From positions 19,096,001 to 19,160,000 of the forward strand of contig NC_088861.1 of assembly GCF_963853765.1 (NCBI RefSeq): 64,000 bases of DNA, given 5' to 3'. Of the stretch, positions 2,271 through 64,000 are shown piece by piece. The stretch's first letter is position 1. Each line of letters begins with the position of its first letter. The translations under genes were made by a program, and so were the position numbers. The DNA is from Magallana gigas. Lineage: Eukaryota. Below the pieces are notes generated by a model. The model was not told where the DNA came from. It made no database searches and saw only the letters and a program-made list of their open reading frames with translations.

Positions 2271-4361
2271 GTAAAATTACTACAGACCAAAAAATACAAA
2301 GATCAGACAATTCAAGACAAATTCTCATTAGTCAGTCTTGTCCGCACTTTGGATTCAATCAGAAACTATTCCTTACTCAGCCTATCAGTTCTGAATCTCT
2401 TGGAAATAAATGCTCTTTTAATTAGACCATTCCATAGGCTTGCAGGTTTTAACAGAATATTTTGATGTTGAAGTACTAATTGAAGCATAAAGCGTAAAGC
2501 AACTTTATTGTGTGGGTTTTTTTTAAACTATATCTCTCCATTAATTTGGGAAGGAAGTTAATATTTTATTCATAAATTCTTTTATCAATCACATTCTCCA
2601 AATCTGCAAGCTTCTCAGTCATGAGCTGTGAATGGTTCCTTTGATGAAACGTTTGGATGAATGAGATCTCTGACTATTCATTGACAAATAGATATGATTT
2701 AAAAATCAGGAAAAAGGCATGAAAGACCTTTTAGACAAAAGACAACTAATATTTAGATGTTCACAATTACATACTCAAATTTTTCAGTTTTTCATTGCAT
2801 CTTACGACTTTATATTCATAGGAAGTAAATATGCAGTAGCAAAAAATATCATAGGTATAAGGAATAAAAAAGAACTTATTAAATTTTTTTTCATTATTTT
2901 AGTATATTTTAGAAATTATACATGAAACTTAAGAAATATAGATCCAAATTAAAGACATGTCTTGATAAAAGTTACTGATAAACTTCTAGAAAATGGAACA
3001 AAAAAAATAACGGTTTAAAAGAGGGAGATTACTTTCTCATGGAAATCATGACTACTACCATTTTACTACCTGGTAAATTGTTTTGGAACATCAAATGATA
3101 GCTTACAATTCGGTAAACAGGATAATTAGAATTTTTAACAACAATATTCTTAGACAGGCAAGAGGAACAATCATGTTTTGCACTGGCCAGGCAATGTTAG
3201 CATTAGCTAAATTGTACTTGCGAGGTAGTGTTTACCAAATTCATAAAGACTGTGTGATTGAGTGTTTAGATTATTCATAAATCATATATTAAAATAAAAA
3301 CCGTAGTTGTTTCACATATTGAGCCTTTTTTCATTCATTTTTGTTGGGATATTTTAGTCCTGACATAGTTTTTTTCTTTTTACCTTGCTTTGTTAATATT
3401 GCTGTTACCAAAAGGCAATTTATCCTGTATTGAATAGCATGATCTTTGATTATAGGATATATTTACCTGGGCAAAATATCACTTCCTTTTTCTATTTTTG
3501 CTTTACTTAATAATATTGCATTAACCTGTACTTAGGGCATCTATATATATGCTTTTATGGTATTGCCTTTATTAGAGGGCACTTTTTTGGCTGATCTAAT
3601 GATATTTCCTTTACTGTAGGACAATACCCAAAATATTGGTTTGATCTCCTTCCAGGATTTATACATTGATCCACAGGTTACTGATATAGATTTTTTAGAC
3701 CCTATAGTGCTAGCAGGGGACTGAAGGTCTGATCTAGCTATCTTATCAATGATTTTACTTTTTGTGGAGGGCAATGTATAACAAGGGCTAACGAGCCAAG
3801 AGCTCTTGATATGTAGAATTGAGTGTACAGAGTCTCAATTAACCTTATTTGCATGTGCTGATATTATTTCTTTCTGCTAGCATGCAATCTTTAAAGTTTG
3901 ATTAGACTTCAGGTCAAAATCCAATTAAATAAAGAGAGCTAATTCCGCTCTTGACAATTGCTTGTATAGAATAGAATTTTTCTGGGAATAAAGAAGTTAA
4001 AAGAAGATAAAAGAATATTCATTAGATATATGCAAGAACAGATGAGGAAAACACTTTTTTTTTTTTGGATATGATTTAGCCAATCTTGATTTCATTACTT
4101 TACTTAAGAATATTTGCATTGATGAGGAGTTAGGAACAACACCCCAATTCAATGCTCTTTCATTTTTAGTTTTCTTCATCAGGCTAATTTCTTTAAAAAG
4201 GATAAATTCACGATGCCTTCATTAACACATTTTATTAATAAGTAAAAAAGAGATGTATTATAGATTAATTTTGAAAAGAAATGGACTTATTGTTGAATTT
4301 TATGACTGTGACTGACATATATTTTTGTTGTTGTAAGAGAATGAGACAAAGGTAAAGTTTA

Positions 4362-4776
4362 ACAGGTTGGGACCAATATCCCAAATGGGATATACATGTA
4401 ATAGCCCGTTTGGGGTATAATAGCCCAAATTGGATATAAATTTAAAGTGCAAAAAATGAAAATTTTTGATTTTGAAATTTCTTATATAAATCCGCATTAG
4501 AATAGATGAAATACAACAACTTTTGGTAAACAACTTTTTCTGTAGCTGTACTATTACGGAGATTGATCCCTCAGTATATCCAAAACTTCTTTGGGATCAA
4601 TCTTACAAACTATTGACATATAGAAAAACTTTTTAACCAAAAGTTGTTGCATTTGATTCACATTAATGCGGATTTATATAAAAAAAATTTAAAATAAAAA
4701 AAAATATTTTTTGCACTTTAAATTTATATCCCATTTGGGCCATTATATCCCATTTGGGAGATTGGTCCCAACCTGT
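4362..4776. mobile_element. Foldback MITE, almost wholly palindromic, with 3-bp TTA TSD (PIF/Harbinger-like target)
   Basis: Ends ACAGGTTGGGACCAAT / ATTGGTCCCAACCTGT; imperfect arms of about 200 bp; TTA at 4359-4361 and 4777-4779. Confidence 0.75.
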
Positions 4777-6858
4777 TTAATTGTCATTCGAATTAATATA
4801 AAAGAAAAGTTGAAATTGAAAATATTCAAATGCGAAGAAAATTCTTAAGTGTAATTGAATTTTTTTTATCATTGCATTGAAATGTAAATACTGTTAATTT
4901 ATTTCATCAAGTTTAGAAGCTGACAAATTTGGAACTTTAAATAGATAGATTTAACATGCCCATCTAGTATATTATTTTCTATTGCATATTTATTTAAATT
5001 TTTATGCTTGAGAATTATTCATAAATGCACCTTTGAAGTATAAGCAGAGGTGAGAGTAGTGAATTCTCCTTAAAATCACTAAAAAAAAATTAACGTTTAG
5101 CAGAATTTTCTGTTGAATTAGACGTAAACTATGTTGAAGTTTATGATTAGTGTCTTTGATGGGATGCCATATATAAGGGAATGCATTAGATAATTCTCTT
5201 TAATTGCCTTTTATATATATAAATTGTTTATGGACTTAAAATAAATGTCAGGTACCTTGAACTGCCAGTCTCGGATCCATCATTGTTACATGGCTTCATT
5301 GTGTTTTCAACAGTTTAAATTAATTTTCCAATTCTAATGCTTTTAATTAGGTTGTTTACCTGTATCTCAGTCTGTGTTTAGCAGTATTACTGTACTCTAT
5401 CTAATGAATTATGAAGAGCTTTCAATTTGATTTTTTTTTGTCCTTAAGACTCCAATGTAAATCTAATTATGGACACTCATAATGACCCCAAGCCTATAGA
5501 AAGATGTATGCAATGAATTTCGGTTTCTCTTTTAAATGCACCATAATTCTTGCCAGAATGTGTGACTATAAATGTTGTGAAATGCAGATTTGCCCATGCT
5601 TTATGCCAGTTTTAACATTGGTCTTCATTTTTATATTGGGCTTTGGCTAGAAAAACTGCACCTAATGCACAATACCAATTAAGTATTTTTTCATGGAAGA
5701 AGATTATGTATGACCAATCCCGAATATTACAAGAAGTAATTAATTAGAGTTTTCCTCAAGACTTGATCATTCTTTGAATGAAAAAAAATTATGTCTGTTG
5801 TATTTAATGTCTCTGTTGTCTGATTAATGATATTTGGAACGTTATACTTTGACAAGATTATGACCAATAAACACAGACTGGCAGACAGATAGATAAACAG
5901 ACAGACAAGCAAAAAGAAAAGAAAATTTTATAAATAAAGAGGAGACGTTCATATTTCCATATCAGCTTCATCAAGGCCAAATTTTCATCCATTGCAATTT
6001 ATTAATCTCTTGGAGCATGCACGTGTATTTTAGGGATCAGGCCAATGGAGTTGTTTACTGTTACAAAAATCTACTAGTATCTGGCCAAGATTGATTTTTT
6101 TCCACGCTTTTATTTCATGCACAGCAAGGTCCTTGGACAGATACCTTTATGAGAAATAGAGGCTTGATGCAAAGAGTGTTTGGCAAAACTGTAGTTTGCA
6201 ACTTGGAAAAGAGCTTAGGCATAGTATGAATGTTTGGGAATTGAACAGTATCTGTTTCCAAAATCATTTCTAGTCTCTATGAGGTGTCCAGAGTATTCCC
6301 ATATACACTAGCAGCTCTTTGTATTTACCTTATTTAAATGTACTCACTGTCCAACTAAATATACTCTGACTATTAGGCTGAACCCTATAATACCTCTCTT
6401 TACAATTCACTTTGTATTTTTAATACCTTTGGTATCATTTAACATGAAATTACTCTGGAAACAAATGCAATGCCACCTACAGTATAACATGAATGTATGA
6501 AAAAAATAAACAAAAATCTCTTGAACAAATACACATCTTTTGGGGGAACTAGTTACATTCAAACATGTGTCTAGACCCTATTTGTATATAAAAAAAATGA
6601 TTATACATTCTTTGAAGAAGTACTGTAAAAAAGCACCTGAAAAATAATGTCTATTATAGAATAATGTTTATGAAAGCTGGAAATGATTTTGTCACCAGTG
6701 TTGTTGGGGCACAAAACTAATCTGATTCAGATCTATCTGAAGATAAATTCACCCTTTTTGTTAACTATTGCACACGGAGATAATTAATGCACTTCTACGA
6801 CTTAAAGTATAAAATTTAATCAAATTAAATGACCTATGGATGTATGGTAAAATTACAG

Positions 6859-57951: not shown

Positions 57952-58030
57952 TTAATCTTACTTTATTTTAATCTCAAATTTAATAGATCTCAATTCCTGA
58001 TTGTAAAGTTTGTGATTTGATTGTTATTAC

Positions 58031-58376
58031 CTGAGTTCCTGTGGTGTGCTAACTCTTGTATGATTGAATCCATCTGTCCCATTTCCATTTGTTTTTTCAT
58101 CGCAATGACGTCCTTTAACAGTGAGTACATCTGATTTGTGAGCGACAGCCGGATTAGTGACTCTTGGTTCAGCTGCTGTCTGAGGTTGTCGATATCTTGT
58201 TGATTCACTGGGAATGGATCGTAAAAGGGTACTGCGTTTGTAATGTTTTCAGAAAACCCCTGTACTGCGTCGTTTGTAATGTTTTCAGATTGCTCGTTTG
58301 GTGAGTAGGGAGCTTCCGTTGTTGCAGATCCACTGACCCCGCAGAACACCAGCATGAGAACAATCACGTGAGTCAT
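58031..58376 (-). pseudogene. C1qDC gene A2: intact first exon (signal peptide + coiled coil), gC1q exon absent
   Basis: Near-identical to A1 exon 1 with an intact phase-1 donor; homology to copy 1 stops at about 56493, inside the intron, before the gC1q exon. Confidence 0.8.
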
Positions 58377-59695
58377 CGTGTCAAGAGTAATGCTACAATA
58401 AACTCCTAATTAATTAAAATATTCTGTTTGATGCTGAACAACATAGAGAAAGTTGCAATGTAGTGTGTAAAGTTCTGATGTTTTCAAAACTAAGTAAAAG
58501 AAATACACGTTTGGAATAAGACTGTTTTAACGACCCCATCCCTCCACATATTAACTTTAATTAGGGAGGTAAGCACTTGAACGATAAAATATTAAGTGTG
58601 ACACTAGAAGGCAATCACTGCAAAGAATACTTCTTCTATTCTCAGTAAAAATAATTTAAAAACCCTCCCCGAAATCTTTGATACTTTATACAGTCAGGAG
58701 ATTATCCCTAGATAAAACTAATATTAATACGTTTGGAAAAAAAAACACGAATTTAAAATAATTAATTTTCAATCAAAATAACTTTTTTGATCTCCGCTCT
58801 TTTTATTCCTTATGTAAAACATGAAAGGATATTTGATTAAATATTCACTGTTAGCCTTTTCATTTTGAAATTATCACGACTCAAATTCAAAATATGAAAC
58901 GGAATTGGATACCATAAAAAATAAATTCAAATTCATTAAAAAAAAAGCATTGAAATGAAGCTATTTTTATTTTTTTTTAATCTAGCTCATTAATATATTG
59001 TAATCTTTATAAGCTTACTGAACTAAAAATAACTGACTTTTTATCATATCAAATAAAATAATATTCATAAAGACAAAAATCGTCATTCTTTATAAAGTTA
59101 GTTCATATCTCCAAAATAGGTTTTCCAGCAAGTGATGTTGAATGGTTAATGAATCTTACAGGAGTTACAAAAGGGCTATATAGTTTTATAAAGGGTGTGG
59201 AGTATATAATTGATCTTCCAACTATATTTTTTGTCTTAATTTAGAAGACAAATGTGTTTCTACGGTTTCAAGTATATGGAAATACCTAGATAATTTGGAA
59301 ATCCCCAATATGGAATCACTTTGAAAAAATGATGAGGAAAAAAATCAAATGTTTTTAGCTACAAAAGTAGGTTTTAATATCTATGCATACAATAAAATAG
59401 TAAAACGATGATTATTTGTTTTTGATAAGGACATTGGCCCACATTTAATCATAAATCATGGATTTCTTTACTGCTGAAAATTGTTTTTTTACAAAATATT
59501 TTCGGAAAACCAGTGAAAAATTCAAAATGATTTAGCGTATGCAAAACGATGTAAATAACAACTATTGCACAGATTCATTATCTTAGGATTTCTCTTTTTA
59601 TTTACTGCGTCAAAATCCATCATTGCTTTATTTGATACCAATATCGTGTATGGTTTGACTTGCTTGGTTATTTACGTAGATAGCAATACATTTAA

Positions 59696-61682: not shown

Positions 61683-62880
61683 TCAGTTTCTCCAGCCTTT
61701 GAAACTTGACCATGCATATCCATGGATGTAGTTCCCAGTCACAGATCGGACATTGACAGTATCCCCAGCTTCCAACACAACAGGAACTGTATTTGCACAG
61801 TTTTCATACCCAGGGTTCCCTTCGTTGTTACAGTTGCCAAGACCTTTTCGTGTTCCGTTGACGATAAGTTCTGTATCTAGAATTTTACGAGCTGCGACCA
61901 AGGTTGTCCAAGTAAATATATAAAGACCCTTGGAGGGTGCTGTAAAGACCCCACTTTGAGCACTGTAGGAACCGTGGGTATCGTACATTACAGTATCGAA
62001 TACAATGTTCACAGGGGTATTTCTATCATATAGGAGCGTCTTTGAAGTGACTGCATTGAAAGCGATAGCTTCTTTTCCTACAATGTCATTCAAAATAACA
62101 ATGAAAGAATCAATTCTATGTATAAAAACCCTGATATATAAATATCAAACAAGTATATTATTAGCAACAGTATTTGCAACAGTATTAGGGTTAGGAAAGC
62201 TCTAAAGGCATTGAATGTATTATTAATTGAAGTATTAAAATAGATTAGGAAGTGACAAAAAAGCTTTATATCTAAGAAACCTTGACGGTGAGTAGAACTT
62301 GTTGACTAAATATTAATTGACTTGTGGATTTGCGACTAGAAATTTTGAGAAACGAGGAAGATGTGGTAAAAAATAATAATTATTGTGTATACATACGGAA
62401 CATAGATAATCATTATGATATCAGATAATTTTTTCAATTTAACATATTTACAAAGAATCGATATTACAGATATAACTTACCATGACTTGCAGTTTTACAC
62501 GTTGATGTCAAATTCTTAAGATCTTTCTGCAAGTTTACTAACTGTTTTGCGAGAACATCATCGCCTAAGGTTGAGTTCCTAAACTTCTCTAGCTCGTGTA
62601 TCTTAGATTCCATCTGCCCCATTCCTTTTCTCATTTCAATAACGTCATTAAGGACAGAATACAATTGTTTGGTGAGCGACAATCTTATGAGTGCCTCCTG
62701 GTTCAGCTGCTGTTTCAAGTTATTCATTTCTTGTTGAATCGAGGGATGTAAACTCTTTGGGGATACTGCGATGGGTTTGTTTTCAAGTTTTGAGTTATTG
62801 GCGGTCAAGAGGGACGCTACATTAGTCGTAGATACACTGATCCCATTATAAACCAATGCTAGATTAATAGCATAGATCAT
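61683..62880 (-). CDS. C1qDC gene B2, intact, 264 aa (exons 62880-62481 and 62077-61683)
   Basis: Same structure and splice sites as B1. Confidence 0.92.
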
Positions 62881-63669
62881 CGTGTAAAGGATTATCCTCC
62901 CCCAGTTAATTCCCAAATAAATAGATTAAATCACACTGGTTGGTGTTCTATATTGCGATGTATTCTGAATGAATGTGTGTAATGGGGACATCATACAAAT
63001 TGACCTCTTATTTAAGCTGTGACGAAAGCTACAGATGTACTTCTATTAAGTGGCAATTAGCAAAGTACGTGCTACTGCGACCATTTAAACAGGACACTTT
63101 TATTAATTATTTTCAGATACATATTTATTTAAGATAAAGTATGAAGTAGAACTCTCGAGAGATTAAAGATCGAGACTGCTACTTGATGCACAGGGGCATC
63201 GTATCCGCTCTACACTCTATGACATATATATATATATATACAATTTTTAATATACTTTCAGCAACTTTTTTTGAAGGCAAACATTTTAATTTTATCATAA
63301 AGAATCGAGTTCGTTACAGTGTATGCATTTGTAACGGAAATTGTATGATCATTGCCACAGTATGAAGTAATGGAGGACACATTGATTTGTACATTACTCT
63401 AGTACAAAGTTCAACTCATCATTTTTCTCTTGGAGATTAATTATTGCAAACCATTATGGATTTTTGTTGTTACATTGTATTGAATTAAAACTAAAATTCT
63501 GCAGCAGACAGCGGTTTTAATGAGACAAAAACGCTTTTTACCTAGTTTATTAGGAACATTTCAATGTGAACGTGTGTTTTGACAACATTTGCAACATTGT
63601 GTGGGAGGATTTGCGAAACTTTTGTCAATTAAGTTGTTTTTTGACATTGTTTACAAATCGTATCCTACT

Positions 63670-63797
63670 NNNNNNNNNNNNNNNNNNNNNNNNNNNNNNN
63701 NNNNNNNNNNNNNNNNNNNNNNNNNNNNNNNNNNNNNNNNNNNNNNNNNNNNNNNNNNNNNNNNNNNNNNNNNNNNNNNNNNNNNNNNNNNNNNNNN
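63670..63797. other. Assembly gap (N run)
   Basis: Run of N. Confidence 1.
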
Positions 63798-63872
63798 TAG
63801 GTAACGATATAGAAAAAGGTTTTCAGTAGACGATAACACAATAATCCATTTCTCTCAAATTTTCTCAAATTT

Positions 63873-63912
63873 AATCCAGAGCGCTTTCGCCTGATCGGCT
63901 CTTCAGTGGATT
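63873..63912 (-). ncRNA. Minimal type I hammerhead ribozyme, Penelope-like-element type
   Basis: Exact reverse complement of 63930-63969. Confidence 0.8.
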
Positions 63913-63929
63913 TCAAATTCACAATTTGA

Positions 63930-63969
63930 AATCCACTGAAGAGCCGATCAGGCGAAAGCGCTCTGGATT
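63930..63969 (+). ncRNA. Minimal type I hammerhead ribozyme, Penelope-like-element type
   Basis: Stem I aatcca/tggatt; core CTGAAGA; stem II gcc-gatca-ggc; GAAA; palindromic stem III AGCGCT; predicted cleavage after C63963. Confidence 0.82.
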
Positions 63970-64000
63970 AAATTTGAGAGAAATGGATTATTGTGTTATC

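Follow-up and report, generated by a model that had tools for sequence, protein, structure and literature searches.

The palindrome described here lies at the right-hand end of the window (the whole 64,000-nucleotide stretch of Magallana gigas DNA that was analysed). A gene for a C1q-domain protein (PF00386, E 5e-13), at 61683-62925 on the minus strand, starts ~0.9 kb from it, and a diverged C1q paralogue is found on the same strand ~4.5 kb further left, at ~57990-58409. With the tail at its left end, the palindrome spans 63779-64017 and constitutes a complete, very short and ORF-less insertion of ~240 bp, whose parts are collected in Table 1.

Table 1. Parts of the inverted insertion and its left-hand target tract, in window positions (PLE, Penelope-like element)
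Feature	Position	Strand	Remarks
(TA)n target tract, left	63691..63778		88 bp; assembly sequence
Tail-bearing arm	63779..63919	sense on -	3' part of PLE pLTR; family positions -131 to -1
PLE 'tail'	63779..63814	-	~36 nt; in the tail-bearing arm only
10-bp tandem duplication	63853..63872		left arm only, just outside stem I
Minimal type I hammerhead	63873..63912	-	predicted cut after 63879
Junction loop	63920..63922		3 nt: 1 untemplated base and 2 bases from the right arm's family sequence
Tail-less arm	63923..64000, on to 64017	+	family positions ~-133 to -37; joins (TA)n
Minimal type I hammerhead	63930..63969	+	predicted cut after 63963; stem I 63930-35/63964-69, core 63936-42, stem II 63943-53, palindromic stem III 63957-62

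Apart from the 10-bp tandem duplication, which interrupts the pairing in the left arm only, the arms at 63815-63919 and 63923-64017 are perfectly complementary over 57 + 38 = 95 bp. An earlier note on this DNA had described an inverted pair of hammerheads in a long palindrome with a 3-nt loop, and we confirm this description, both hammerheads being complete. Its account of perfect pairing and of the left-hand duplication also stands, and its arm length of at least 78 bp becomes 95 bp. The palindrome does run off the window, as had been noted: the last 17 nt of the right arm, up to 64017, were read from the genome assembly, and past the window end the arm ends in (TA)n (76 bp) and (TG)n (46 bp). 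On the left, the N stretch previously taken for an adjoining gap is not a gap in the assembly, where this place is occupied by the (TA)n tract of 88 bp, followed by the tail of the element. Outside the (TA)n tracts, the two flanks show no relationship (best match 11 nt, E 0.05). Positions 63798-64000 fold at -133.8 kcal/mol (z -22), and none of 200 shuffled sequences was equally stable. For the junction itself we rely on the assembly and on the parallel copies found elsewhere in the genome. A search with the junction 15-mer was uninformative, giving 19 matches, no other one at a family locus.

Each arm carries stem I (AAUCCA/UGGAUU), CUGAAGA, stem II (GCC/GGC), GAAA, the palindromic AGCGCU and the CUC triplet. 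The search with hammerhead models that had been recommended was unproductive: Rfam gave no match in the window at gathering score and, below it, only generic miRNA-hairpin matches when ranked by E-value. The hairpin context and the minimal stems may hide the hammerhead from these models. Likewise, energy alone gives no support to a single hammerhead, since the monomer fold scores z -0.7 to -0.9. Across the representatives of seven families, however, 14 columns are invariant, the core is kept, and stem III is palindromic in all seven. Stems I and III are 96.8% paired, with 6/9 pairs changed on both sides, and their covariation is 0.725, against 0.164 in shuffled and at most 0.153 in slid alignments. 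Two copies of the window motif have the double hammerhead (dimer) as their predicted minimum-energy cofold, as is the case in 4/7 families, that of the window included; to this extent, the dimer action put forward earlier is supported. On these grounds we take the motif for a conserved ribozyme of PLEs, its predicted activity depending on a second copy.

Minimal hammerheads acting as dimers have been described in metazoan PLE pLTRs (PMC4209133), and their dimer cleavage has been reviewed (PMC6765202). The window motifs share with them the type I topology, the conserved core, the G10.1-C11.1 pair, the palindromic stem III and the predicted dimer, and differ in their short 3-bp stem II and in lying only ~30 nt apart within one hairpin; opposite-strand pairs reported in Schistosoma are 100-700 bp apart (PMC4209133). 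The window hammerhead sequence was not found in the one supplement file of that paper that was searched. Genome-wide, a relaxed hammerhead pattern gave 792 matches versus 27 in the control, and contig C1 alone holds at least seven families of minimal hammerheads. Three hammerhead families have almost no stem II (a 7-11 nt AU-rich segment) and a longer stem I of 8 bp.

The family was surveyed in the 564-Mb assembly (29 contigs). The 28-nt ribozyme core had 64 exact matches (control 0), and the pLTR 3' probe and the tail probe, both at ≤1 mismatch, had 100 and 44, respectively; the 81 regions taken around probe and core matches represent 79 distinct loci, given below by their L numbers. Partial tandems occur at L090 and at L033/L061, the latter with the arrangement pLTR-ORF-pLTR and an inverted arm. 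The minus strand of L033 encodes RVT_1 (E 3e-7) plus, at the C-terminus, a GIY-YIG domain (E 1e-7), and has a DKG motif. The hammerheads thus lie within the pLTR of a Penelope-like element, as had been suspected, and the window palindrome is almost certainly the stub of one. The proposal that it represents the inverted end of such an element holds for the pLTR and fails for the rest, as we are dealing with an insertion that is short but whole, and no long element ends here: the RT/GIY-YIG ORF expected in the next window is missing, with no family ORF in the 19 kb that follow the window copy.

The family combines an RT-GIY-YIG fusion, tandem and inverted pLTRs, a tail at one end and a pLTR hammerhead, which places it among the endonuclease-bearing (EN+) PLEs. 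In protein P0001, a CX4CxxC linker is separated from the next Cys by a long spacer of 24 residues, and CCHH is also present, the spacer resembling by eye the Neptune rows of PMC8557442 Fig. S2 and unlike the short Nematis rows. By its C-terminal EN, CX2-5CxxC linker, long spacer and CCHH, all motifs read from sequence, the family would be Neptune-type; the Neptune clade is itself paraphyletic (PMC8557442). It shares with Neptune1_Nv and Neptune-1_Ac (PMC8557442 Fig. S2) the order of RT and C-terminal GIY-YIG, the DKG motif, the linker, spacer and CCHH, the (TA)n bias and the pLTR hammerhead, a likeness by motifs; in contrast to them, the ORF is split between two frames in the one full-length oyster copy that we examined. 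Naiad/Chlamys elements (N-terminal GIY-YIG, DKA, no hammerhead) were rejected, given the C-terminal EN, the DKG and the hammerhead. On these sequence features, the stub is a head-to-head insertion of a Neptune-type PLE in a (TA)n tract.

In L033, the two overlapping coding frames (413 and 787 aa; L033:5903-7141 and 3585-5945, minus strand) meet at a T-run. Most homologues measure 720-790 aa, and those at E≤1e-30 number 1262 among 7990 scored, the named ones being largely from bivalves (oysters, mussels). The split is possibly a natural two-ORF or frameshift layout rather than damage; a two-ORF Neptune consensus has been reported (PMC12602865). A 367-bp element with inverted ends, likely a MITE, sits in the L033 3' UTR (L033:3081-3447) and also beside or inside two other copies (L029:5706-6073; L067:5138-5515).

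The layout of the window copy is known from other EN+ PLEs. Insertions with an inverted 5'-truncated copy, a one-sided tail of 30-40 bp and a (TA)n bias have been described (PMC8557442), and these elements, together with Adineta Pen2a (PMC3846280) and D. virilis Penelope (PMC2377424), share with the oyster family head-to-head pLTRs with a tail at one end, heavy 5' truncation, a partial tandem in the full-length copy and a microsatellite target without discernible TSD. The window copy differs in that nothing but two pLTR pieces of ~100-140 nt is left and an ORF is lacking; moreover, the one-tail pattern is quantified here and proves nearly strict (46/47), and either arm can be the longer one. 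A non-LTR retrozyme (at least two direct tandem units with a hammerhead) was also considered and rejected, as the window motifs are inverted. Such retrozymes (bioRxiv 10.64898/2026.07.22.740005) are likewise short, non-coding, pLTR-derived and furnished with a type I hammerhead; they are, however, direct tandem repeats able to self-cleave, whereas each stub copy has its own junction and is therefore not a propagating unit.

Of 116 3' ends, 60 are tail-less (~-41 to -29), 50 are tailed (-1; two of these are internal tandem junctions) and 6 are of other kinds. The target is (TA)n, with (TA)4 within 30 nt of 94/115 3' ends, and in the RNA a U-run and UAUAU come after each of the two end sites, where a (TA)n primer can pair with them. 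Of the 34 classifiable two-armed copies, 33 combine a tailed with a tail-less arm (p 1.6e-9); the exception, L095, has two tail-less arms, and no copy is two-tailed. This count leaves out L028, which is old and has one unclear end, and L052/L083, L055, L038, L040, L044, L070 and L088, in which the second arm lacks a family 3' end or is rearranged. An independent check on 20 regions, picked among the first 100 of those 792 hammerhead matches with preference for opposite-strand neighbours, yielded 13 head-to-head pairs belonging to six other families; all 13 show the same pairing (p 1.2e-4), which hence holds for 46/47 pairs over all seven families.

Arm lengths were scored by script in 32 copies, with inner ends that are approximate for L035, L054, L061, L067 and L027. 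In 11 of them (no fewer than 9 if L061 and L027 are removed) the tail-less arm exceeds the tailed one by >20 nt, and the tailed arm is longer in 10; in the remaining 11, which include pairs of 1.9-kb and 0.44-kb arms, the two lie within 20 nt of each other, as against 4.6 expected by permutation (p 0.001). In L085 and L073 the partner arm consists of the tail only, and single-armed tail-less copies are many. Both arms of a copy carry the same subfamily letter at 69/71 diagnostic sites and share even rare haplotypes (L023, L098, L095). Long arms differ within a copy (11/1852, 4/1520) about as much as between copies (6-16). An ORF-side run of five Ts is kept at 8/23 tail ends in the subfamily whose tandem junction has it and at 0/15 in the other subfamily (p 0.013), whose own read-through was not seen; this would fit initiation inside the transcript, at the pLTR-ORF junction.

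The inner ends concentrate just 5' of stem I, where 30 of 99 probe-ascertained arms end at -147 to -128, compared with 7 in the flanking 40 nt (p 3e-9). The window copy (-131/-133) sits in this hotspot, and the short palindromes of other families turn within ~30 nt of stem I. All seven families have TGACGT motifs, which may be read as CRE-like promoter sites, 30-78 nt 5' of the core. Cutting of the template at the hammerhead was rejected as the main stop, because only 2/99 arms end exactly at the predicted cut (-90), which is not significant. Tailed arms starting exactly at -90, as a cleaved template would give, are L079:4973-5062 and L084:4998-5087. RNA reads across the pLTR-ORF junction numbered 47, 84 and 49, from ~12.9 million records each; these 180 reads lie on both strands, about half continue into unrelated flank, and, too few to place a start or a cut, they form no start or end pile-up. 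A fourth RNA run contained 23 contigs with this junction.

Three further arrangements were seen in the survey. L026:4874-5214 is a double palindrome with three intact hammerhead cores, the middle junction lying on the AGCGCT palindrome of stem III. Another family provides a head-to-head pair, L105:466-575, whose two arms are separated at the junction by ~100 nt of unrelated filler. In some (TA)n tracts, insertions from different PLE families are piled up (L030 left flank, L106, L111, L114, L117), each using the repeat beside an older copy.

Considering these patterns, we propose that both cut target strands probably prime on one RNA, at two start sites. The endonuclease would cut both strands of (TA)n, and the two target 3' ends would serve as primers for reverse transcription of a single element RNA, each at a different end of its ~35-nt tail, initiation taking place at the upstream pLTR-ORF junction. 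Both cDNAs would stop near the likely RNA 5' end, with transcription starting ~10-25 nt 5' of stem I, and would then be end-joined head-to-head. A reverse transcriptase without RNase H can reuse its template. The transcription start of D. virilis Penelope lies 46 nt ahead of an intron whose end is at helix I (PMC2377424, PMC4209133). An anole PLE, Poseidon_Ac, cuts and extends in vitro both strands of an AT-rich target, and its RT starts at the two ends of the tail and initiates at the pLTR-ORF junction (PMC11167929), as we suppose here. That study observed neither a strand-specific start site nor homology between start site and target; in the window family, on the other hand, each start site precedes a U-run and UAUAU, which match (TA)n, and is used once per insertion. 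Since no strand difference was seen in that system, the strict coupling of the start sites needs an extra assumption. Two observations also speak against the two-primer model, namely the correlation of arm lengths, which a fold-back would explain more simply, and the symmetry of the window copy itself. Furthermore, the hotspot may partly reflect AT-rich microhomology.

Fold-back synthesis, in which a tail-primed cDNA snaps back at its 3' end and copies itself, is in our view the main alternative, though a somewhat unlikely one. By annealing at TATAT, the copy would become attached to the other (TA)n end and so fail to reach the start by ~33 nt. This directly explains why there is one tail per insertion, and it agrees with the near-equal arms in 11/32 copies, with several junctions on small palindromes (AGCGCT in L098, AAATTT in L091) and with the TCTAT microhomology kept at 18/55 scored tail-less junctions; self-priming has been proposed for palindromic inverted junctions of this type (PMC3846280). 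However, the tail-less arm is much longer in at least 9 of the 32 copies (L031, L049, L054, L080, L081, L085 and others), and fold-back cannot give such arms or the tail-only partners, so that later deletion has to be invoked; the many single-armed tail-less copies also count against it, as does the junction of L074, which on reading by eye has no self-priming match. Later loss of DNA from the centre of the palindrome could indeed shorten either arm.

It is improbable that two independent RNPs, each with its own RNA, primed the two ends of one break and were then joined. Either arm could then be the longer one, and divergence within a copy would equal that between copies, as is the case; this last comparison, however, has no power to tell one RNA from two. 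Independent start sites predict that about half of the pairs are of the same type, whereas we saw 1/47, and the letters common to both arms, rare haplotypes included, argue in the same direction, even if they could reflect one active source at a time.

The idea that the palindrome is a selected ribozyme/antisense switch, which extends the possible built-in switch of the earlier note, we regard as very improbable. Both hammerheads are intact, Penelope inverted repeats yield siRNAs in transgenic Drosophila (PMC3681739), and one opposite-strand joint of the family is present in 3 RNA reads. Yet intactness is expected of a young copy. With the arms head-to-head, the antisense arm always lies 5' of the ribozyme and is transcribed first on either strand, and there is no second, active state: in the full insert, the predicted pairing probability of stem I rounds to 0 on both strands, the hairpin reaching -134 to -164 kcal/mol as against about -10. 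Moreover, the two ribozymes lie on opposite strands and so cannot form a dimer in cis, the junction position varies among copies, and many copies lack the ribozyme or are cut through it. The models predict instead that the hammerhead works only as a dimer, in the RNA of the full-length element, and that the ribozymes of the stub are sequestered by the antisense arm, so that it would have no ribozyme activity and could at best supply hairpin dsRNA.

An assembly or read fold-back artefact, which a near-perfect palindrome between simple repeats might suggest, is hardly credible, as the arms differ by the 10-bp duplication and the tail, the flanks beyond (TA)n are not mirrored, the N stretch is no assembly gap, and 34 two-armed copies of the family and 13 from six other families have junctions of their own.

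Within our preferred reading, two primers on one RNA, we tentatively consider a stronger form as well, which has less than an even chance of being correct. A dimeric RT-endonuclease would cut both strands of (TA)n and copy one RNA twice, beginning at either end of the tail, and the first cDNAs would be retrovirus-like strong stops, ending where transcription starts, just 5' of the hammerhead. By circularising the RNA or enabling a jump, the ribozyme would let the RT continue into the ORF, and the mini-palindromes would be frozen failed intermediates. If true, the pLTR, the tail and the inversion would all follow from one mechanism.

Taken by itself, the locus is unremarkable, being one dead stub of a retrotransposon that is common, and inverted pLTRs, the one-sided tail and close opposite-strand hammerheads are already published. 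Our literature search, to which most subscription journals and Repbase were external, turned up no statement of a strict one-tail coupling or of a strong-stop hotspot, and published supplements beyond it may name this family. Such stubs inflate hammerhead and miRNA-hairpin predictions in bivalve genomes. Their value lies in the record that they keep of how PLEs insert, the origin of the tandem and inverted repeats and of the one-sided tail having been named as an open question (PMC8557442). The census makes the insertion mechanism testable: sharp predictions for the existing in vitro system follow from the almost strict rule of one tail in all seven families, from arm lengths that stand in no fixed proportion, and from the hotspot of stops.
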